Below, piece after piece: positions 1,189 to 55,586 of a DNA stretch of 64,000 nt (positions within the stretch are counted from its first letter, which is position 1; every line of letters starts with the position of its first letter). This DNA comes from a virus (Duplodnaviria > Heunggongvirae > Uroviricota > Caudoviricetes): the IMG/VR virus record IMGVR_UViG_3300044799_000708; one strand, given 5' to 3'. A program made the position numbers and the translations under genes. The notes beneath the pieces were generated by a model. That model made no database searches. It was given only the letters and a program-made list of their open reading frames with translations, and was not told the origin of the DNA.

Positions 1189-2412
1189 ATGATAGAATTT
1201 AATAATATGAAAGCCAAAAAATCATACAAATACAGGCTTTATCCGAAAAGGGAAGCTTTATACAAGATGGAAAACACTCTGGAAATATGCAGACAAGTTT
1301 ATAATGAAATGCTATCGATAAGGCAGGCTACATACGAAATCACTTGTGAAGGTTTGAGCAAATTCGACATGAATAGTTGCATAAGATATGGCATTGATGC
1401 TGACATTTCGCAAGTCCATTCGCAGGTTTTGCAAAATATCAATGATAGGATAGACAAGGCATATGTCAACTTCTTCCGAAGGCTCAAAGAAAAACAAGCA
1501 GGGAAGAAAATCAAACTTGGCTACCCACGCTTCAAAAATAAATACAAATCGTTCACATATCCGCAGAGTGGATTCACGCTTGACGGAAACAAACTGCATC
1601 TATCGAAAATAGGAAAGGTCAATGTCTGCATAGGAAAAAAACAGAATAGGGTCTCTGGGAAAATGAAGACATTGACGATAAAAAGAGAGCCTTCTGGCAA
1701 ATGGTTCGCCATATTCAGTTGCATTGATGTTCCTGTCAAGAAATTGAAACCGAACAAAAGGGAAATAGGTATAGATGTCGGTTTGGAATACTTTGCTACA
1801 TTGTCGAATGACAAAAAGATAGACAATCCGAGATTCTTATTTCATTCTGAACAAAAGTTGAATGTATTGCAACGAAGGCTATCACGCAAGAAACTTCACG
1901 GAAAAAATTGGCAGAAAGCAAGCCATAAGGTCGCATTGTTACATGAGCATATAGCGAACCAGAGATATGATTTTCATCACCAACTAACGCATAAACTGAT
2001 AATCGAATATGGAACAATCTGCTATGAGGATTTAAATATAAAGGGAATGGTAAAGCATCCATATTTGGCAAAACATATTCACGATGCATCATGGGGTCAA
2101 TTCACAAGGTTGCTAAAATGTAAGGCTGAAAGTGCTGGCAGGATAGCAAAAGCAATAGACCCAAGAGGGACATCACAGACTTGTTCGCAATGCAGGAACA
2201 AAGTCCCAAAGACATTGGCTCAACGATGGCATAGATGTCCTCATTGTGGAATCAAATTGCATAGAGATTTGAATTCGGCTAAAGAAATACTTACCAGAGG
2301 AACTCTGGAAAAATACGCCTGCGGAGATAGGAGTTCTGCTCTTTTTGCACAAAGCAATTTTGAGCATAGCCTATCAAGGAAGCAGGAAATCCCTCAACTC
2401 ATTGGGGGATAG
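1189..2412 (+). CDS. tnpB: TnpB-like RNA-guided endonuclease (IS200/IS605 OrfB family), stand-alone IS1341-like
   Basis: 407 aa; C-terminal half has RuvC-like layout followed by zinc ribbon CSQCRNKV..x..CPHCG typical of OrfB_IS605/OrfB_Zn_ribbon; no Y1 TnpA nearby. Confidence 0.85.
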   Translation: MIEFNNMKAKKSYKYRLYPKREALYKMENTLEICRQVYNEMLSIRQATYEITCEGLSKFDMNSCIRYGIDADISQVHSQVLQNINDRIDKAYVNFFRRLKEKQAGKKIKLGYPRFKNKYKSFTYPQSGFTLDGNKLHLSKIGKVNVCIGKKQNRVSGKMKTLTIKREPSGKWFAIFSCIDVPVKKLKPNKREIGIDVGLEYFATLSNDKKIDNPRFLFHSEQKLNVLQRRLSRKKLHGKNWQKASHKVALLHEHIANQRYDFHHQLTHKLIIEYGTICYEDLNIKGMVKHPYLAKHIHDASWGQFTRLLKCKAESAGRIAKAIDPRGTSQTCSQCRNKVPKTLAQRWHRCPHCGIKLHRDLNSAKEILTRGTLEKYACGDRSSALFAQSNFEHSLSRKQEIPQLIGG

Positions 2413-36522: not shown

Positions 36523-37079
36523 ATTTGCATATCCTCATTTGAAGCCAAATGTTCTTTCTTATAGATAAACATCTTCTTTTTCATTCCCTTCGCATATCTT
36601 ATCGTCTGGGAAGTCCCTCCCTTTACACCTTTATGGTTGAATGCGATAAGAATATCGGAGATTTCAGCGATTATTTTGTTCCTTTCATAGAACCTCTCTG
36701 GTGAAGGTTTTTTCGGGTCTGGGTAGATGATTAGAAATGGAATTCCGTTTTTCTTTGCATATATCTGGGCAAAAGTGTCCACTCCGATTGCGCCACCAGA
36801 TACGATTATGTCCTTTTGCGTGATGTCCAGCCATTCCTTGTTCAGTTTGTCAAGTTTTTCAAGGACTTCCATAAGCCCCCATCCATATCTGTTGCCAACG
36901 ATTCCAATAATCCGAATATTATTTCCTGTTGGTATTCCGATTTTTTTAATAGTTTTCTTCCATGCCTTTACCTTTATATCCCTTGACAGCCTTTCAATCT
37001 GCTTTCTGCTCTCTTGTGTGAAACTCCCAACCGCTAAAGCGTGTGGGCTTCTATTGGACTTTGCCATAGTTGCCTCCAA
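36519..37079 (-). CDS. DprA/Smf-like (SLOG superfamily) Rossmann-fold protein (186 aa)
   Basis: IIGIVGNRYGWG ... IIVSGGAIGVDTFAQIYAKKNGIPFLIIYPD resembles the DprA GxxxGID motif region; overlaps the TnpB 3' end by 29 nt. Confidence 0.35.
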   Translation of the reverse strand: MEATMAKSNRSPHALAVGSFTQESRKQIERLSRDIKVKAWKKTIKKIGIPTGNNIRIIGIVGNRYGWGLMEVLEKLDKLNKEWLDITQKDIIVSGGAIGVDTFAQIYAKKNGIPFLIIYPDPKKPSPERFYERNKIIAEISDILIAFNHKGVKGGTSQTIRYAKGMKKKMFIYKKEHLASNEDMQI

Positions 37080-38169
37080 TAGTTCTGGGCATAATCACAG
37101 ATGCCCCTGAACTTGACATTTCGCCAAGTCCTCGTTTGGCTATGTTTATAGCCCCATTCCTGTCTGCATTGTCCTCGTATCCGCATTTGCATTTGAATAA
37201 TCCTTTATTCCTCTTTCCTGTTTGACCACATTTTGAACAAGTCTTTGATGTATATGCCTCGTTTACCTTTATGACATGTATGCCCTCCCAATTCGCCTTG
37301 TATTCGATATAATTTGATAACTCGGCAAAAGGCATCGTATTGAGTCTGCGATTGAATTTCCTTCCTTTATCACTATTTTTCGTTATTCCTTTTAAGTTTC
37401 CGATTGCAATCACTGAATTGGTCTCTTTTGCCTTATTCACTATTTTTCGGCTAATTTTGTGTAGCTGGTCTTTCACTTTGCGTTTTTCCGTGTTTCCTAT
37501 CCTTTTGATTGTCTTGTTTGCTTTCTTCTCTCCCAATTTCTTCCGCAGATGGAAATAGTGTCCTCTTATTTGTCGAATCTCCCTGCCATAGTATCTGGTC
37601 ATGCCATCGGATAATTGCACCACAGATGCGATTCTCCTGATGCCCAAGTCTATGCCAAGAACATCTTTGTATTCGGTTATCATTTTGATTTCCTTTTCTA
37701 TGGTTATGTGTGCATACCATTCATTGTTTCTTTTTACTATCTTGCTATCACAGAATGTGAAATCCTTCATTTTGTTTTCATAATGTTTGGGTATGTTAAC
37801 TGCGACCCAGAATTGTCTCCTTTGTTTTGTCGGGACTTTGAGCCAGTATTTGAATTTCTTTGTGGGTTGTTTCTCCAATCTTGATACATCATTGCGTAAA
37901 TATAATGGTTGCTCGGTAAGGTTTCTGAATGGTTCTGTTATCATTCGGATAGCCGATGTGACCTGCTGACAATATGTGCTTCCATTCTTGAACCAAGAAT
38001 ATTGTGGCTCTATGTCGTTATTTCTACACTCCTGAACCTGCTGGCATATATTGTTGAAACTATCATATTCCTGTTGGAGTATGGCTTCCTTTATGTTGGT
38101 TAAGCCGACTACTTTTCCCATTAATGATATTTGCTGGTTGGGCTTGGTTCTATTGATGCAAAAGGTCAT
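37051..38169 (-). CDS. tnpB: TnpB-like RNA-guided endonuclease, second and unrelated copy (372 aa)
   Basis: C-terminal zinc ribbon CSKCGQTGKRNKGLFKCKCGYEDNADRNGAINIAKRG (OrfB_Zn_ribbon + RuvC-III); no TnpA. Confidence 0.8.
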   Translation of the reverse strand: MTFCINRTKPNQQISLMGKVVGLTNIKEAILQQEYDSFNNICQQVQECRNNDIEPQYSWFKNGSTYCQQVTSAIRMITEPFRNLTEQPLYLRNDVSRLEKQPTKKFKYWLKVPTKQRRQFWVAVNIPKHYENKMKDFTFCDSKIVKRNNEWYAHITIEKEIKMITEYKDVLGIDLGIRRIASVVQLSDGMTRYYGREIRQIRGHYFHLRKKLGEKKANKTIKRIGNTEKRKVKDQLHKISRKIVNKAKETNSVIAIGNLKGITKNSDKGRKFNRRLNTMPFAELSNYIEYKANWEGIHVIKVNEAYTSKTCSKCGQTGKRNKGLFKCKCGYEDNADRNGAINIAKRGLGEMSSSGASVIMPRTIGGNYGKVQ

Positions 38170-42691: not shown

Positions 42692-43525
42692 TTAACCTCC
42701 CTGTGAAAGATTCAATGGTAATTGAACAAATGGCACTGCATTAGCGTTTCCCGAAAAAAATTGTGGAAGCACGCCATTCCATTTTTGTATTGCCAGCCAT
42801 TTTATGTAATCAGGGCTGTTTCGTAGTTGTGCATTTATTATTTCTATGGATTTCGCCTGACCTTCTGCCTGTGCGATAGCCTGTTGTGCCACTGCTTGAA
42901 TTTCCTTTACCTTATTTTCGGCTTCGAGTGCCTTTTGGACTTGCGTTTGCTTTGATGTTATTGCATTGTTGAAGTCAGGTGGGAACTCGAAATTGGTAAT
43001 GGAAATTGTTTCTACAATTATGCTTCTATTAAGCATCCTTTCTGTCAGTAATGTGTCTATATTCTGCTTTACATTCTCTCTCTTTTGTATCAGTCCTTGT
43101 GCGTCATATTTTGCCGTTACTGATTTTACGACTTCTTGAACCTGCGGTGCAATGACTCTTTCTTGATAGTTTTCGCTCAATTTCTGGTATATTGTATTTA
43201 CATTTGCAGGGTCTATGTGATAGTTGACCGCCACAGTTGTTCTTACATCAAGAAGGTCTAATGATGCTGACTCGCAGGCGACCTCGTATTTTTGTGTTCT
43301 TACTTCCATTGGTCTATAGCTTTCTACGAATGGGGTTATGAAATAAAGACCTTCGTTGAGAATCCTGTCTTCGACAGCACCGAATCGCAATACAACGCCC
43401 CTGTAACCTGCTGGAATTATCGCTATTGTGCTTGCAAGGGTAATTATTATGAACATCAGTAAAATGAACCCTCCTACAAGTCTTGGCAGCGAAAGGTTTC
43501 CTTCTTTGTCAATTAATATTCCCAT
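42692..43525 (-). CDS. SPFH/band-7 (prohibitin/HflC-like) membrane protein (277 aa)
   Basis: N-terminal TM then IPAGYRGVVLRFGAV..ILNEGLYFITPFVESY..MEVRTQKYEV and a long A/Q-rich coiled coil. Confidence 0.8.
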   Translation of the reverse strand: MGILIDKEGNLSLPRLVGGFILLMFIIITLASTIAIIPAGYRGVVLRFGAVEDRILNEGLYFITPFVESYRPMEVRTQKYEVACESASLDLLDVRTTVAVNYHIDPANVNTIYQKLSENYQERVIAPQVQEVVKSVTAKYDAQGLIQKRENVKQNIDTLLTERMLNRSIIVETISITNFEFPPDFNNAITSKQTQVQKALEAENKVKEIQAVAQQAIAQAEGQAKSIEIINAQLRNSPDYIKWLAIQKWNGVLPQFFSGNANAVPFVQLPLNLSQGG

Positions 43526-50802: not shown

Positions 50803-51142
50803 GGAAATCCTCCTCCTTCAACTCGAATCTTTCCATCAAAAGTTTTATTGTGGGACACATTGAACAAAGATTACCATCATCCTCAATAGAACACCCAAAG
50901 GGTTTCCCATCTTTCCAGTGAATATCATTTTTATTCTTTTCACAGTCTTTAAATTTATGGTGTTCCTTTATCAGTTTTTTGACAATCATTTTCATCCACA
51001 GTTTCAAAACATGATATGGTATAGCACCCCATTCGCTATCAGTTGCTTTGAAACATGGCTCTCCTATACAGTCTCCTTCTGTTCTTTTCGCTGGTAAAAA
51101 TCTTGCCAGTTCGCTAATTTTTAATTCGTGCATCTTTTTCAT
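50765..51142 (-). CDS. Cys-rich protein (125 aa)
   Basis: Eight Cys; overlaps neighbours. Confidence 0.45.
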   Translation of the reverse strand: MKKMHELKISELARFLPAKRTEGDCIGEPCFKATDSEWGAIPYHVLKLWMKMIVKKLIKEHHKFKDCEKNKNDIHWKDGKPFGCSIEDDGNLCSMCPTIKLLMERFELKEEDFHVNNTKRNTQVR

Positions 51143-51750
51143 TTTAAACTACTTCCTTCCTTTTTCGCAAACCAAGTTCGATATAATACATACCACACAA
51201 GACTACAAAATATAATGATTATGATAAACATCACAATAGTCCATGAACTATCAATATCAGTATTTTCACCATCCATTTTCGCAGGTGTTTCCATTTCCAC
51301 AGGTGTTAAATTTTCCTTTATTTTGTCTATAGTGCATTTGTATCCATCGAAATATTTTTGTTTTGAAAAATTGGTTTCAATGCATTCCCTTGCTATGTCG
51401 CCAACTTTGGCATCATTTAAGTCCCCTTCCAGACCATAGCCCACTTCTATTCTATATTTATGCTCGGAAGGAACTTGCAGAATCAATATCCCATTATCTT
51501 TGCCTTGTTTGCCTATTCCCCATTCCTTAAACAATTCAACGGTATACATTTCTATGCTTTCGCCCTGCAAATTATTTGTAATGACGATGGCTATTTCATC
51601 AGTGGTATTTTGTTCTATACCTAATAAAATATTGTTTAAAGAGTTTTCCTCGCTTTCCGTCAAAATATTGGCATAGTCATTGACCAAACCTATAGGTTTT
51701 GGAAATGTTAAAGAATAAACAAAGGTTGGAGTGCATGAAATTAAAATCAC
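51139..51750 (-). CDS. TPM-domain (YgcG/TLP18.3-like) protein with C-terminal TM (203 aa)
   Basis: VNDYANILTESEENSLNNIL..TTDEIAIVIT..EWGIGKQGKDNGILILQ..RIEVGYGLEGDL; C-terminal TM IVMFIIIIIFCSLVWYVLY. Confidence 0.7.
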   Translation of the reverse strand: MILISCTPTFVYSLTFPKPIGLVNDYANILTESEENSLNNILLGIEQNTTDEIAIVITNNLQGESIEMYTVELFKEWGIGKQGKDNGILILQVPSEHKYRIEVGYGLEGDLNDAKVGDIARECIETNFSKQKYFDGYKCTIDKIKENLTPVEMETPAKMDGENTDIDSSWTIVMFIIIIIFCSLVWYVLYRTWFAKKEGSSLK

Positions 51751-51770: not shown

Positions 51771-52358
51771 TTATAATTCCACCTTTGGTGCTATTTCAGC
51801 CCCTTGTCCAGATTCAAAGTATTTTTTGGCATGATAGTCATATATATTCGCTACTATATTTGCTGGAAATACCTGAATCGCAGTATTGAATGGTTTGACC
51901 ACATCATTGTATCTCATTCTTTCAACGGCTATTCTATTTTCTGTTCCTGCCAGTTCATCCATTAGTTTTTGGACTTGGGTATCGGCTTTGAGTTGTGGGT
52001 AATTTTCCATCACAACAATCAGTTTGGATAGAACACTTTCGAGACCATTTGAAGCCTCGACTTTTTCATCAGGTGTTTTTGCATTTCCCCACTGGCTTCT
52101 ATAAAATGTTACATTTTCCAGTAGAGCCTTTTCATATGCCATATATCCCTTTACTGATGCTACGAGATTCGGTATTAGGTCATATCTTCGCTGGTATTGT
52201 GATTCCACTTGCCCCCATTGGTTGTTCACGTTCTGGTCTAATTTTATGAAGTTGTTGTATGTGCCTATGAACCAACTTACCGTTCCCAAGCCGATTATTG
52301 CTATGATAACCACAGCCCAGAACCACTTCTTCAAAAAGAATGGTTGTTCTTCTGCCAT
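51771..52358 (-). CDS. lemA: LemA-family protein (195 aa)
   Basis: N-terminal TM then NNFIKLDQNVNNQWGQVESQYQRRYDLIPNLV...NYPQLKADTQVQKLMDELAGTENRIAVERMRYN..FPANIVA. Confidence 0.8.
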   Translation of the reverse strand: MAEEQPFFLKKWFWAVVIIAIIGLGTVSWFIGTYNNFIKLDQNVNNQWGQVESQYQRRYDLIPNLVASVKGYMAYEKALLENVTFYRSQWGNAKTPDEKVEASNGLESVLSKLIVVMENYPQLKADTQVQKLMDELAGTENRIAVERMRYNDVVKPFNTAIQVFPANIVANIYDYHAKKYFESGQGAEIAPKVEL

Positions 52359-53809
52359 TTTATACCTCCTATTTTTTCAATGTCAATTTGAGAAAGTTTA
52401 TTCTTCGGTGAACAACCTGCTGCCCCCGAACCTGCACAGGCACAAGCGCAGGCGCAAGCTGCTACACATGCACAACTTACACAGGATGGACTTGAATCAT
52501 AACCTCCGCTTTTTCCTGCCCCTCCCGATTCTCCACCACCGAATTTAAATGCCTGAACTGATAAAGCCCCAGTAGCGCATATGTGCGGATAGAATAGCCA
52601 CCAGTAAATTGGAAACCATTCGCCACCCTCATCCCTTTTCTTTTTTTGTTCATCTTCCTGTTCGTTTCGTATCTTTTTTATTTTATCGAACTGTCCTCTG
52701 TCCAGCCATATTCCACTGCAATCATCACAGACTAAAATGCTGGTCGAATCGCCCTTGTATATTTTCGTTACTTTGCTCATAGCCCCTTCGCATCTTGGAC
52801 ATACTCCTCTTCTATATGGTTTAGGTTCTCCAGTCGGTTTTCCAGTAGTGAACATTGATTCGGAAGCATCGTTTTTTATTAGCTTTTCTATTTCTCCCTT
52901 GTCGAAGAATCCACCACCGCATTTATTGCAGATGTCTATCGTAACTTCCTTTACATCTTTTTTTTCCAGCTTTTCATCATCGTTGATGCAATTCATGCTC
53001 AAATGCCTTGTGAAATTGGAATTCCCTCCGATATGGAATGAAGGACTTTCATAATCTCCTCCAGACCCAAGAACTTTAAAGAGAAAAAAGACAATAAACA
53101 TTGCAATAAAGATAAATGGCAAAGCTGATAAAATAGAAAAATAACCCAAATTCTGGCTTATTGGTGATGATGGAACTCCTAACCCTGAATTCGATTGTGC
53201 ATTTTCCATATTAGTAAAAACATTGAGAGGCATTATGACCCCAACAGTTTTCTTTACGCCTCTTCCGACATTATCCCATTCCCAGACCACGCTGTTGTTT
53301 TCATATCTTGTCGGTTCAGAATCGGTCTTCACATCTTTGATTTCTGGAGGCATCCAGACGGCAATGGTCAATTTTTCTGTTTGGGCATTATCCCACCAAG
53401 TCGGTGTAAATTGTATGCTGGCATTCTCTCCGTATTTGTTTACGAAATTTTTCTGGTTTACCTTGAAATTAAACGTGAAGGAATCGCCACTGAAATATGT
53501 TTTGTCCAGTTCGATATAAACCCCCGACCAGCCATAACTGTTTTTCGGGCTTGCTGATATAGCCGACCCTCCATAATTTATTACCTCAAAATCGGAAGTG
53601 GGAAGACCAATCGTGACATAAGGTATGTTCCCTCCAGTGACCCTGAATTTTACATTATATTCTATATAGACATCCCTGTTTGTCTGAACTGTAAGGTCTG
53701 TCCTCTGGCTTTCTATGACATAAGTTCCAGTATCTGCCAAAACTGGTTTTATCAATATGGATATTGCTAAAATGAATATTATGAATAAATATGGAATATT
53801 TGTTTTCAT
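52331..53809 (-). CDS. DUF2207-like secreted/membrane protein with C-terminal zinc-ribbon and Cys/Ala-rich extension (492 aa)
   Basis: Signal peptide, beta-rich ectodomain, central TM (FSILSALPFIFIAMFIVFFLF), then CNKCGGGFFDKGEIEKL and CPRCEGAM..x..CDDCSGIWLDRGQFDKIKKI (zf-TFIIB-like), Gly-rich linker and CVSCACVAACACACACAGS tail. Confidence 0.5.
   Translation of the reverse strand: MKTNIPYLFIIFILAISILIKPVLADTGTYVIESQRTDLTVQTNRDVYIEYNVKFRVTGGNIPYVTIGLPTSDFEVINYGGSAISASPKNSYGWSGVYIELDKTYFSGDSFTFNFKVNQKNFVNKYGENASIQFTPTWWDNAQTEKLTIAVWMPPEIKDVKTDSEPTRYENNSVVWEWDNVGRGVKKTVGVIMPLNVFTNMENAQSNSGLGVPSSPISQNLGYFSILSALPFIFIAMFIVFFLFKVLGSGGDYESPSFHIGGNSNFTRHLSMNCINDDEKLEKKDVKEVTIDICNKCGGGFFDKGEIEKLIKNDASESMFTTGKPTGEPKPYRRGVCPRCEGAMSKVTKIYKGDSTSILVCDDCSGIWLDRGQFDKIKKIRNEQEDEQKKKRDEGGEWFPIYWWLFYPHICATGALSVQAFKFGGGESGGAGKSGGYDSSPSCVSCACVAACACACACAGSGAAGCSPKNKLSQIDIEKIGGIKWQKNNHSF
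52431..52490. repeat. GC-rich (TGY/GCA)n-like microsatellite encoding the Cys-Ala tail
   Basis: cctgcacaggcacaagcgcaggcgcaagctgctacacatgcacaac stands out in an otherwise AT-rich window. Confidence 0.5.
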
Positions 53810-53982
53810 AATTTTTTCACCTTATTACCTTTTCTGAATAATATTCTATTACTGATATTATTCCGAATGTGTAAAGTGTCGAAATCCCAAAAATCATTAG
53901 TGACCAGTTCCACAAAAGTCCTATGAATCCTATTACACCTCCAGTTAATGCCATTATCGCAAACCATATTGATTTATTCATG

Positions 53983-55383
53983 TTATATCACCTTTTTGCA
54001 CATTCTGTTTTCCCTGTCTAAAGGGCAACCACCTTTGCACATATTGAAAAATTCGCATTTCATGCATTCCTCGTTGGCATATTTGTTGTTTCTTATTTTC
54101 TTTGCGATTTTGCCATTCCATATGCTATTCCATGAATCCTCCAATATGTTGCCCAGTTTTTCATGTGTCCATGATTGGCATGGAATGACATCGCCATTCG
54201 GTTCTATCATCATATTTATTTGACAAGCCGAACAGCATCTTTGACCGAACCCCAATTCAATGGGGTTTAATCTTTTGTAACAGCTTGGAAGAAACCAGTT
54301 GAATGTTACTCCTCTTTTTTCTGCATAGCTTTTTCCGTCTGTGAGGGTTTCTTTCAGGATTTCTTCTGACAATCCATCAGTTATTTTTTTCTCTTTGCCT
54401 CTGCCTGAATTGATTATGGCATTGGTAGAAACTATGTTTACGCCGAGTTCCTTTGCCAAATCTATCAAACATCTCAAGTCCTTATAGTTTTTTTTCGTCA
54501 GAGTAGCATTGATGGAAACTACCAAGCCAGCATCAATACAATGATTTATTCCTCTTAATGTTTCCATAAACGCACCTTCTCTGCCTTGCATTTCGTCATG
54601 GACTTTTGATTTGTTTGATTCCAATGTGATTTGTATCCAGTCCAGTTCGGCATCAACGAAATCTTTTGCCATTTTTGCGTTTATCAGCGTTCCATTCGAA
54701 ATTACGCCAGTTACGAATTGTTTTGAATAGGAAATGAGGTCAATCAAATCGCTTCTCATCGTGCATTCCCCACCAGTGAAAACGAGTTGTGGAACGCCCA
54801 CGCTCCATAATTTGTCTATGATTTTTTTCCATTCTGTTTTCGGCAACCTTCCATTTTCATCGGCATTTTTCGGGAGATAGCAATGAGGGCATTTGTTGTC
54901 ACATTCATATGTTAAGGATAAATCCATCCTGTTCGGTGCTTTGACATCATTATCCTTTATTTTTTTCATTCCGACTAAATGGGTCGGGATTTCATTTCTT
55001 GCAAAGCTGTTTATCACTCCGATGATTTGATTCAGGTCTTTTTCCAGTATTTCCACTTTTATTTTTCTATATTTCTTTTTCAATTTGGAAATGGTTTGCT
55101 CAAAGATTTTATTTTGCGGAACTTCATAGCACGAATCGATAAAGGATGATAAGATAAAATTGCTTGTTTTATTCAGATGCAGAACGTAATAACCATTAAT
55201 CCATAGTTTATTTTCATCTGTTTTCAGGTGTATTCTGACCCCATCTAAAGTAACGTGCTTCAAAATATTTCCCTTTTCGCTTATTCCCTTTAATATTTTC
55301 ATACTAATCCCCAATATAATGCCAATCCAATGACAGTTAATGTTGTCATAATACCAGTCACAAATCCATGACCAAACCACCAC
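53983..55383 (-). CDS. radical SAM / SPASM-domain enzyme with N-terminal extension (RiPP-maturase-like); probable start 55302
   Basis: CDNKCPHCY (CxxxCxxC) about 130 aa from the probable start; C-terminal Cys clusters CYKRLNPIELGFGQRCCSACQ..x..ECMKCEFFNMCKGGCP fit a SPASM/twitch domain. Track start is GTG; ATG at 55302 overlaps the stop of the upstream peptide ORF (TATGA). Confidence 0.75.
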   Translation of the reverse strand: MVVWSWICDWYYDNINCHWIGIILGISMKILKGISEKGNILKHVTLDGVRIHLKTDENKLWINGYYVLHLNKTSNFILSSFIDSCYEVPQNKIFEQTISKLKKKYRKIKVEILEKDLNQIIGVINSFARNEIPTHLVGMKKIKDNDVKAPNRMDLSLTYECDNKCPHCYLPKNADENGRLPKTEWKKIIDKLWSVGVPQLVFTGGECTMRSDLIDLISYSKQFVTGVISNGTLINAKMAKDFVDAELDWIQITLESNKSKVHDEMQGREGAFMETLRGINHCIDAGLVVSINATLTKKNYKDLRCLIDLAKELGVNIVSTNAIINSGRGKEKKITDGLSEEILKETLTDGKSYAEKRGVTFNWFLPSCYKRLNPIELGFGQRCCSACQINMMIEPNGDVIPCQSWTHEKLGNILEDSWNSIWNGKIAKKIRNNKYANEECMKCEFFNMCKGGCPLDRENRMCKKVI

Positions 55384-55412
55384 ATTCTTTCGTTGTTTTC
55401 TAACAAAGCCAT
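55299..55412 (-). CDS. 37-aa aromatic/hydrophobic peptide coupled to the rSAM-SPASM gene (candidate precursor or small TM peptide)
   Basis: GGTGAAATC-ATG RBS; MALLENNERMWWFGHGFVTGIMTTLTVIGLALYWGLV; stop TGA overlaps rSAM ATG. Below the track cut-off, translated by hand. Confidence 0.4.
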   Translation of the reverse strand: MALLENNERMWWFGHGFVTGIMTTLTVIGLALYWGLV

Positions 55413-55424
55413 GATTTCACCTTT

Positions 55425-55586
55425 CTATGGAGTTGAAGTATGGGGTTTGATTAGTGGATAAGTCGGAGGATAACCGATTTTTGGTTTAAAATAATCGTAT
55501 TTATCCATATTATTTTTGCATTCACTGCACTTTATTCCCCTTGATTTGCATTTGTTCCTATAGACACAATTCGGTTCATTCATCAT
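55425..55586 (-). CDS. 53-aa Cys-rich peptide (candidate precursor or zinc ribbon)
   Basis: catcatttcacc RBS/MM start; MMNEPNCVYRNKCKSRGIKCSECKNN..; TAG immediately followed by the RBS of the 37-aa ORF. Confidence 0.4.
   Translation of the reverse strand: MMNEPNCVYRNKCKSRGIKCSECKNNMDKYDYFKPKIGYPPTYPLIKPHTSTP

Follow-up and report, generated by a model that had tools for sequence, protein, structure and literature searches.

Within a 64,000-nucleotide (nt) stretch of DNA catalogued as viral (IMG/VR record IMGVR_UViG_3300044799_000708, here called the window), a radical S-adenosylmethionine (rSAM) enzyme with a C-terminal SPASM domain is encoded together with a membrane protein whose C-terminal region carries a cysteine-alanine repeat, the (Cys-Ala)n tail. 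The rSAM-SPASM enzyme and the tail-bearing membrane protein constitute an ancient, widespread two-gene module, often extended by genes for a TPM-domain protein and a LemA family protein. The pairing is apparently undescribed so far, as we found it in no paper of the open-access literature and in no Pfam or NCBIfam family. We consider it probable that the two proteins are functionally paired. The reading that best fits their sequences is that the tail, as part of a full-size membrane protein, is modified by the enzyme through radical chemistry, with thioethers as the leading candidate product, and that the enzyme is guided by a domain resembling the recognition element (RRE) of enzymes acting on peptides that are made by ribosomes and modified after translation (RiPPs). 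This reading is favored with better than even confidence, and the same holds for its central premise that the tail is the substrate of the rSAM enzyme. The principal features are listed here by their positions in the window; all features of the module and all small open reading frames (ORFs) lie on the minus strand, lengths are given in amino acids (aa), and A1 denotes an alignment and profile of 20 homologues of the enzyme.

53983-55302, minus strand: radical-SAM/SPASM enzyme, 439 aa, with an RRE-like N-terminal domain (Pfam, AlphaFold 2 [AF2] model, Foldseek)
55000-55269, minus strand: RRE-like (PqqD-like) domain, enzyme residues ~12-101 (AF2 model, SkfB profile alignment, PqqD hits in relatives)
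54880-54903, minus strand: radical-SAM cluster motif C134-x3-C138-x2-C141 (sequence; invariant in alignment A1)
54025-54234, minus strand: SPASM domain with auxiliary-cluster cysteines C357, C375, C413, C416, C422 and C426 (Pfam; A1)
52331-53809, minus strand: conserved partner, a 492-aa membrane protein
52403-52483, minus strand: (Cys-Ala)n tail, partner residues 443-469, CVSCACVAACACACACAGSGAAGCSPK, proposed rSAM substrate site

The breadth of the pairing was assessed at 80 loci, with one genome per species, that encode relatives of the enzyme at 33-63% identity; tail ORFs near the rSAM gene were sought by sequence patterns loose enough for the spacing of the window-type tail. The genomes belong to Thermoplasmatota, Bathyarchaeia, Dehalococcoidia and other Chloroflexota, Zixibacteria, Krumholzibacteria, Acidobacteriota, Planctomycetota, Asgard archaea and others. 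In 67 of the 80, the rSAM homologue has as its neighbor an ORF on the same strand with a (Cys-Ala)n tail. This ORF lies upstream in 46 genomes, where the matched part of the tail ends 42-289 nt before the rSAM match (749 nt in one case), and is the next gene downstream in 21. Five of the 13 exceptions are truncated by contig ends, one (L054) is unexplained, and the remaining seven form a separate subclade that is taken up below.

Individual loci follow the same arrangement. All close relatives have, as the first large gene behind the rSAM gene, one that encodes a protein of 480-528 aa with Zn_ribbon_TFIIB hits, and a tail-bearing gene adjoins the rSAM gene in loci L001, L003, L006, L008, L009, L090 and L091. 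The partner in L008, where the enzyme is 42% identical to that of the window, is located upstream and has no zinc ribbons, and a tail-bearing partner is kept on a Bathyarchaeota chromosome whose enzyme is 39% identical. The association also holds in the reverse direction: starting from the bacterial partner homologues P0212 (Bacillota) and P0201, an rSAM-SPASM gene is found immediately upstream, and a 218-aa gene or TPM and then LemA are found downstream. The window has this same set of genes. LemA accompanies the module in L001, L090, L092 and L094. TPM immediately precedes the rSAM gene in L090 and L091, and in L094 it comes after the partner. The corresponding genes of the window are the following.

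51771-52358, minus strand: LemA family gene; it overlaps the partner gene at the 3' end of the latter (Pfam LemA, E 1.8e-54)
51139-51750, minus strand: TPM-domain membrane protein (Pfam TPM_phosphatase, E 1.1e-36)

The tail is a distinguishing feature of the partner family. In the window, the C-terminus of the partner contains SCVSCACVAACACACACAGSGAAGCSPK, with the layout C-V-S-CAC-VAA-CACACACAG-SGAAGC, and the invariant tail can be approximated by the consensus CAC-x3-4-CACACAGG-x2-GC-x2-K, whose Cys, Ala and Gly columns are invariant in the partner alignments A2 and A3. Partners of the window type have a further 20-30 residues beyond the tail. A Gly-rich linker precedes the tail in many partners, and in many lineages the tail forms the extreme C-terminus after a Gly/Ser-rich linker (..GGGSSCACACACAGCACACAGGGR, then stop). 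Three tail flavors are distinguishable and follow the clades of the enzyme.

Tail flavor 1: ..SCAC(V/A)(S/A)CACACACACAGGGAAGC..
Tail flavor 2: ..CVCACAxCACACACVSCACACA(G/H)GGAR, then stop
Tail flavor 3: ..CACACACAGCACACAGGGR, then stop

An origin of the tail as a DNA-repeat artefact was ruled out, as mixed synonymous codons encode the conserved protein sequence; with the codons varied in this way, conservation acts at the protein level. The partner encoded by Bathyarchaeota CP070659.1 (L009 3930-3972, the same site as L049 4862-4906) has an in-frame TGA at the position of the third tail cysteine of other Bathyarchaeia, in the context RCVCA-TGA-ASCACACACVSCACACAGGGAR as compared with SCVCACASCACACACVSCACACAHGGAR in the other Bathyarchaeia partners. 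A selenocysteine/cysteine pair could explain it, as could a sequencing error, or the gene may be a pseudogene.

Partner homologues number 783, and among the best 120 the tail is present in 111. Across the family, invariance is confined to the ectodomain and the tail (alignments A2 and A3), and the region between them varies. The model of the 492-aa partner comprises an N-terminal signal-like helix, a beta-sandwich ectodomain (~26-200, confidently modeled at residues 29-194) and a transmembrane (TM) helix (226-247), followed by two zinc ribbons and a disordered C-terminus that carries the tail. The ectodomain is a generic beta-sandwich, and profile-profile comparison shows it to be homologous between partners of the upstream type and those of the downstream type (hhalign probability 100%, E 6.9e-42). 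NCBIfam contains no family for the partner, and Pfam recognizes its zinc ribbons only. The window partner gives no match to DUF2207 (PF09972); weak matches to its N-terminal domain occur for the partner in L065 (E 0.038, 14.6 bits where the cut-off is 24.4) and for one of 22 other-type partners (E 2.9e-4), and any relationship to DUF2207 is at best distant. At one locus of Acidobacteriota (CAZYAF010000004.1; L025 6227-9279), three tandem paralogues of the tail-bearing partner follow a single rSAM gene, an arrangement like that of multiple RiPP precursors.

The enzyme has 246 identified homologues. Radical_SAM (PF04055) matches residues 129-279 of the 439-aa protein (E 4.8e-21, 76 bits against a cut-off of 29.5) and SPASM (PF13186) matches residues 357-417 (E 1.3e-11, 45 bits against 21.5). 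The CxxxCxxC cluster and the C-terminal SPASM-like cysteine clusters that a preliminary description of this DNA had read from the sequence are thereby confirmed. SPASM domains are seven-cysteine C-terminal domains with the pattern C-x9-15-G-x4-C ... C-x2-C-x5-C-x3-C, which hold two auxiliary 4Fe-4S clusters. The pattern of the enzyme is canonical (G370-x4-C375, then C413-x2-C416-x5-C422-x3-C426), and its cysteines are invariant or nearly so in A1. The AF2 model has a mean predicted local distance difference test (pLDDT) score of 84.5, and its fold matches in Foldseek the rSAM enzymes, a superfamily that carries the CxxxCxxC motif in a partial TIM-barrel core. The top structural matches, extending over the full length with 410-451 aligned columns, are the RiPP maturases SkfB (E 3.5e-19) and SuiB (TM-score 0.68); PqqE and the anaerobic sulfatase-maturing enzyme (anSME) rank below them, with alignments limited to the core. 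A search with the A1 profile likewise identified the sactisynthase SkfB as the closest solved relative (E 4.8e-33), with CteB matched at E 2.3e-15.

No NCBIfam model reaches its cut-off with the enzyme, which therefore belongs to no curated family. Heme-pathway SPASM enzymes score highest (NirJ2 136 bits against 500, AhbC 130 against 650, AhbD 129), the range for NirJ, NirJ1/2, AhbC and AhbD being 125-136 bits against cut-offs of 500-650. They are followed by MftC (118 against 265) and PqqE (110 against 381); by the sactipeptide maturases AlbA (NF012164; 107 against 850), StsB (NF045574; 99.5 against 625) and SkfB (TIGR04403; 75 against 300); and by rSAM_ACGX (TIGR04340; 76 against 400) and the KxxxW maturase (68 against 500). 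The enzyme lies below the cut-off of every non-RiPP SPASM family, a grouping with which would have counted against the preliminary description. No heme-pathway genes were detected in the inspected neighborhoods of enzyme homologues, and there are no pqq or mft genes near the enzyme. PADLOC found only a generic similarity of the rSAM core to pVip models and no specific defence model for the enzyme, and nothing for the partner, LemA, TPM, a Band_7 gene of the window or the small ORFs. Relatives of the enzyme were not found in a collection of viral contigs, either with the single sequence or with the A1 profile. The evidence as a whole supports an rSAM-SPASM enzyme of the RiPP-maturase type that bears an RRE-like domain.

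This domain occupies most of the ~128 residues before the radical-SAM core. RREs (PqqD-like domains) are winged-helix-like N-terminal domains in which a three-stranded sheet is followed by three helices, and they bind a substrate by its leader region. The AF2 model of the enzyme has strands at 14-19, 22-27, 32-35 and 39-42 and helices at 45-60, 63-77 and 83-101 (pLDDT 76-94), and this predicted succession of four strands and three helices is the RRE arrangement. The profile alignment with SkfB starts at position 12 and so includes the N-terminal domain. Pfam PqqD (PF05402) matches five of 20 family members (best E 5.3e-07) and is also listed in the precomputed annotations of three homologue hits. 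The earlier comparison of the ~130 aa ahead of the core with RRE-carrying enzymes is borne out by the modeled fold and by the PqqD hits among homologues. Alignment A4, made of partners of the upstream type (for example L065 3147-4931), has a conserved stretch some 20-60 residues ahead of the tail. This stretch, PG..FA.S.V.G....S...V.....FT........P.P.S, includes a TNPxPVS-like motif and is a candidate for a leader-like site that binds the RRE.

A plausible course of events can be proposed from these features. The partner would be exported with its N-terminus out, and its zinc ribbons and disordered C-terminus would remain in the cytoplasm, a topology suggested by the combination of a cleavable-looking signal sequence with one TM helix. 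A cytoplasmic tail would be within reach of an oxygen-sensitive iron-sulfur (Fe-S) enzyme. The enzyme would probably dock on the C-terminal region of the partner via its RRE-like domain, and 5'-deoxyadenosyl-radical chemistry would then modify the Cys-Ala repeat. The likeliest reaction would be the formation of thioether cross-links from cysteine sulfur to carbon, as carried out by sactipeptide and ranthipeptide maturases. Thioethers are favored because the nearest characterized relatives are sactisynthases and because the putative substrate is an array of cysteines with small neighboring residues; on this analogy, thioether chemistry specifically is a tentative assignment that falls short of an even chance. 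We propose with similar reserve that the module makes a previously undescribed tail modification, possibly a thioether ladder or a new protein-borne metal-binding or redox structure, which in many anaerobic archaea and bacteria would work with LemA and TPM on the cytoplasmic side of the membrane, and which archaeal viruses or mobile elements may carry to remodel the envelope of the host.

Several observations weigh against modification of the tail. Adjacency of the two genes speaks for a functional link and does not by itself identify the tail as the substrate. Seven rSAM homologues at 35-39% identity (L045, L059, L068, L070, L077, L079 and L085), from Asgard archaea, Coatesbacteria and some Chloroflexota, have no tail-bearing partner. 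Six of these seven loci (not L045) instead have a different and apparently common downstream gene, whose product ends for example in ..TPIFWILARK and whose homology was judged by eye; the tail-less subclade is probably a different system. The window enzyme itself falls below the Pfam PqqD threshold. A binding site for the RRE-like domain was not identified in the window-type partner, and the candidate segment upstream of the tail is seen only in partners of the other, upstream type. The tail is unstructured in the partner model (pLDDT <50 from residue 408), and the proposed topology is read from a single TM helix. Lastly, the highest NCBIfam scores of the enzyme are those of the heme-pathway enzymes NirJ2, AhbC and AhbD, though far under the cut-offs.

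These scores for cofactor-pathway enzymes lend themselves to another explanation, in which the tail binds a metal or an Fe-S cluster and is not covalently modified. The rSAM enzyme would then assemble or deliver the cluster or cofactor, or would make a small-molecule cofactor for a complex of the partner, LemA and TPM. The alternating Cys-X repeats do resemble metal-binding Cys-X-Cys motifs, and LemA has a relative in MamQ, a magnetosome protein (99.8 bits, with a cut-off of 250). However, NirJ2, AhbC and AhbD score four- to fivefold under their family cut-offs, and heme-pathway enzymes are without an RRE, whereas the enzyme family described here has one and matches SkfB and SuiB over the full length. 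No other cofactor-pathway genes are conserved nearby, and we regard this explanation as unlikely, if the best placed of the alternatives.

Two further explanations are each less likely again. The tail could be a true RiPP core for which a 440-residue membrane protein serves as a giant leader or scaffold, with the released peptide acting as a metallophore, signal or toxin. The position of the tail at the extreme C-terminus after a Gly/Ser-rich linker in many lineages would suit such a release, as would the three tandem paralogues after one enzyme in Acidobacteriota. Against it, no protease or exporter gene is conserved around the module in the neighborhoods inspected, conservation of the ectodomain equals that of the tail and so points to a function in cis, and the window-type tail is followed by 20-30 more residues. 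The tail cysteines could also undergo a different radical reaction, such as conversion to formylglycine or thioaldehyde (anSME-like), epimerization of Ala or Cys (as by YydG and EpeE), or C-C or S-S coupling. Both anSME and EpeE are among the structural matches (Foldseek ranks 8 and 50), and anSME also acts on full-size proteins. Yet anSME has no RRE and its profile alignment is limited to the SPASM part, the tail is without the C/S-x-P/A-x-R sulfatase motif, and both the sequence and the structural comparison place the sactisynthase SkfB first.

The preliminary description had instead looked for the substrate in two small ORFs upstream of the enzyme gene, which are listed here with a third small ORF that lies downstream.

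55425-55586, minus strand: 53-aa ORF, starting MMNEPNCVYRNKCKSRGIKCSEC... and ending in the stop codon TAG
55299-55412, minus strand: 37-aa ORF (orf37), with its stop codon TGA at 55301-55299
53817-53981, minus strand: 54-aa two-helix hydrophobic ORF, in a variable slot between the rSAM and partner genes

Between the TAG of the 53-aa ORF and the ATG that starts the 37-aa ORF stands AAAGGTGAAATC, and the ATG of the 439-aa gene (55302-55300) overlaps the TGA of the 37-aa ORF as ATGA. The three genes are thus chained by overlaps of stop codon, ribosome-binding site and start codon, as had been stated. It had also been stated that standard annotation would miss both small ORFs; this does not apply to the 37-aa ORF, which is a called protein in a public collection (P0241, 100% identity, 37 aa).

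Neither of the two ORFs is conserved as a precursor would be, and the expected synteny across related elements is absent, an outcome that the preliminary description itself had named as speaking against its model. HMMER, run exhaustively against 1.84 billion representative proteins, recovered no homologue of orf37 other than itself, and tblastn found nothing resembling it in 91 loci encoding relatives of the enzyme. Residues 16-37 of orf37 read as a single hydrophobic helix, and the ORFan is predicted to be a small single-helix membrane protein outside the conserved module. The 53-aa ORF has the cysteine pattern C-x5-C-x6-C-x2-C and gave zero candidates in a word-index search of a 5.8-billion-protein index. 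Its sole relative is an uncalled ORF in a sister element (L001/L002), at 60% identity and with all four cysteines kept, where ORFs of 65 and 100 aa stand between it and the enzyme. From its sequence, it is probably a small zinc-binding protein of the element, likewise outside the conserved module. Pfam, NCBIfam, PHROG and PADLOC returned nothing significant for the 37-, 53- and 54-aa ORFs.

Comparison with the sister element shows how these ORFs are placed. At the DNA level, the window and L001 are 80% identical in the rSAM gene, 80.5% in the gene of the 492-aa partner, 86% in LemA and TPM and 78% in the 5' part of the 53-aa ORF. Two segments are not conserved, 55478-55303 (the 3' end of the 53-aa ORF and all of orf37) and 54002-53760 (the 54-aa ORF), and unrelated small ORFs take their place in L001. 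The TPM gene abuts the rSAM start in L090 and L091, whose enzymes are 64-66% identical, and in chromosomal Thermoplasmata homologues (56-60% identity) the upstream neighbor is a divergent gene, with no small ORF there. The slot between the rSAM and partner genes holds ORFs of 54 aa in the window, 89 aa in L001 (2791-3060), 106 aa in L090 (6335-6655) and 92 aa in L091 (6311-6589); it is empty in chromosomal copies, and the ORF is absent in L003 and L006. Both slots, the one upstream of the rSAM gene and the one between the rSAM gene and its partner, are hot spots of small-gene turnover, and the ORFs of 53 and 37 aa sit between conserved blocks, in a variable slot, as unrelated small genes.

That either ORF is a RiPP precursor, bound by the RRE-like domain and cross-linked by the rSAM enzyme, for example at the WWFGHGF stretch, is consequently very improbable: the tight translational coupling to the enzyme gene, the RiPP-maturase architecture of the enzyme and a marginal daptide-type match of orf37 (NCBIfam, E 0.054, 13 bits against a cut-off of 25) are outweighed by the ORFan status of orf37, its absence from all 91 related loci including a sister element whose flanks are ~80% identical, its hydrophobic helix, untypical of a core peptide, the separation of the only relative of the 53-aa ORF from the enzyme, the chromosomal homologues without small upstream ORFs, and the fact that the enzyme family tracks the tail-bearing protein instead.

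The module is embedded in what is probably, from its gene content, an archaeal virus or other mobile element. The exact protein sequence of the partner occurs on a JGI contig of 75.9 kb. The window has zero tRNA genes and a uniform G+C content of 33-38%, and no housekeeping genes are present among the window ORFs scanned. Its recognizable genes are YopX, an HNH-endonuclease-like gene, two TnpB genes, a beta-helix protein and SPFH/Band_7; most of the 30 larger ORFs match neither Pfam nor PHROG, and no capsid, portal or terminase was recognized in scans of the window ORFs with these two databases. The closest chromosomal homologues of the enzyme (56-63% identity) occur in metagenome-assembled genomes of Thermoplasmatota, with which a Thermoplasmata-type host would agree. 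The preliminary description had placed the cassette in an apparently archaeal array of viral or extrachromosomal-element genes, and the surroundings do look like those of a mobile element. The two TnpB genes are of the IS605-family OrfB/TnpB type (Cas12f-like TNB domain) and are located at 1189-2412 (plus strand) and 37051-38169 (minus strand). In L091, a Y1 transposase and TnpB pair is found directly upstream of the TPM-rSAM module. The SPFH/Band_7 gene lies at 42692-43525 (minus strand), and L090 likewise has a Band_7 gene, a few kilobases upstream of the module. Band_7 may thus be another membrane-associated passenger that recurs in these elements.

RRE-containing rSAM-SPASM enzymes are usually mined as markers of small peptides, and the enzyme family described here appears to be dedicated to the C-terminus of a membrane protein. 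The pairing extends from Thermoplasmatota and Bathyarchaeia to Chloroflexota, Acidobacteriota and Bacillota. If modification of the tail is correct, it would add a class of protein-tail substrates to RiPP-like chemistry and provide a first handle on the function of widespread and unexplained LemA/TPM/DUF2207-like gene sets. The complete module would then exemplify an archaeal mobile element that carries such a gene set as an auxiliary function. For genome mining, the locus cautions that the nearest small ORF need not be the precursor.

Among known systems, the canonical RiPP cassette is defined by a small conserved precursor ORF in synteny with its maturase, and neither the 37-aa nor the 53-aa ORF behaves in this way. 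The neighborhoods of DUF2207, LemA and TPM are comparable in that LemA and TPM also flank the module, which is set apart by its (Cys-Ala)n tail and obligatory rSAM neighbor. SuiB (streptide) and CteB (SCIFF/thermocellin) are also RRE-rSAM-SPASM enzymes with two auxiliary clusters. SCIFF substrates are Cys-rich; the SCIFF and KxxxW precursors are small peptides, and their substrate motifs differ from the tail. QhpD, which introduces thioether cross-links into QhpC, and anSME, which matures sulfatases, set a precedent as SPASM enzymes whose modified cysteines belong to proteins that stay functional and not to a peptide that is released. Their substrates are soluble periplasmic proteins with other motifs, however, anSME is without an RRE, and the enzyme has no sequence-level membership in either family. 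The ACGX-repeat (TIGR04340 rSAM_ACGX) and FibroRumin (TIGR04135) systems, named and described here as in NCBIfam, combine rSAM/SPASM enzymes with short Cys-repeat substrates; their targets are small peptides, and they are closest to the module in the style of the substrate, with FibroRuminTarg matching the tail of one partner (E 0.032; 14 bits, where the cut-off is 45). The sactipeptide maturases SkfB and AlbA share with the enzyme the architecture of RRE, radical SAM and Twitch/SPASM domains as well as a Cys-rich substrate, SkfB at 19% identity. The module differs in having no protease or ABC exporter in its neighborhood and in its presumed substrate, which instead of a short leader-core peptide is the tail of a membrane protein of 320-770 aa.

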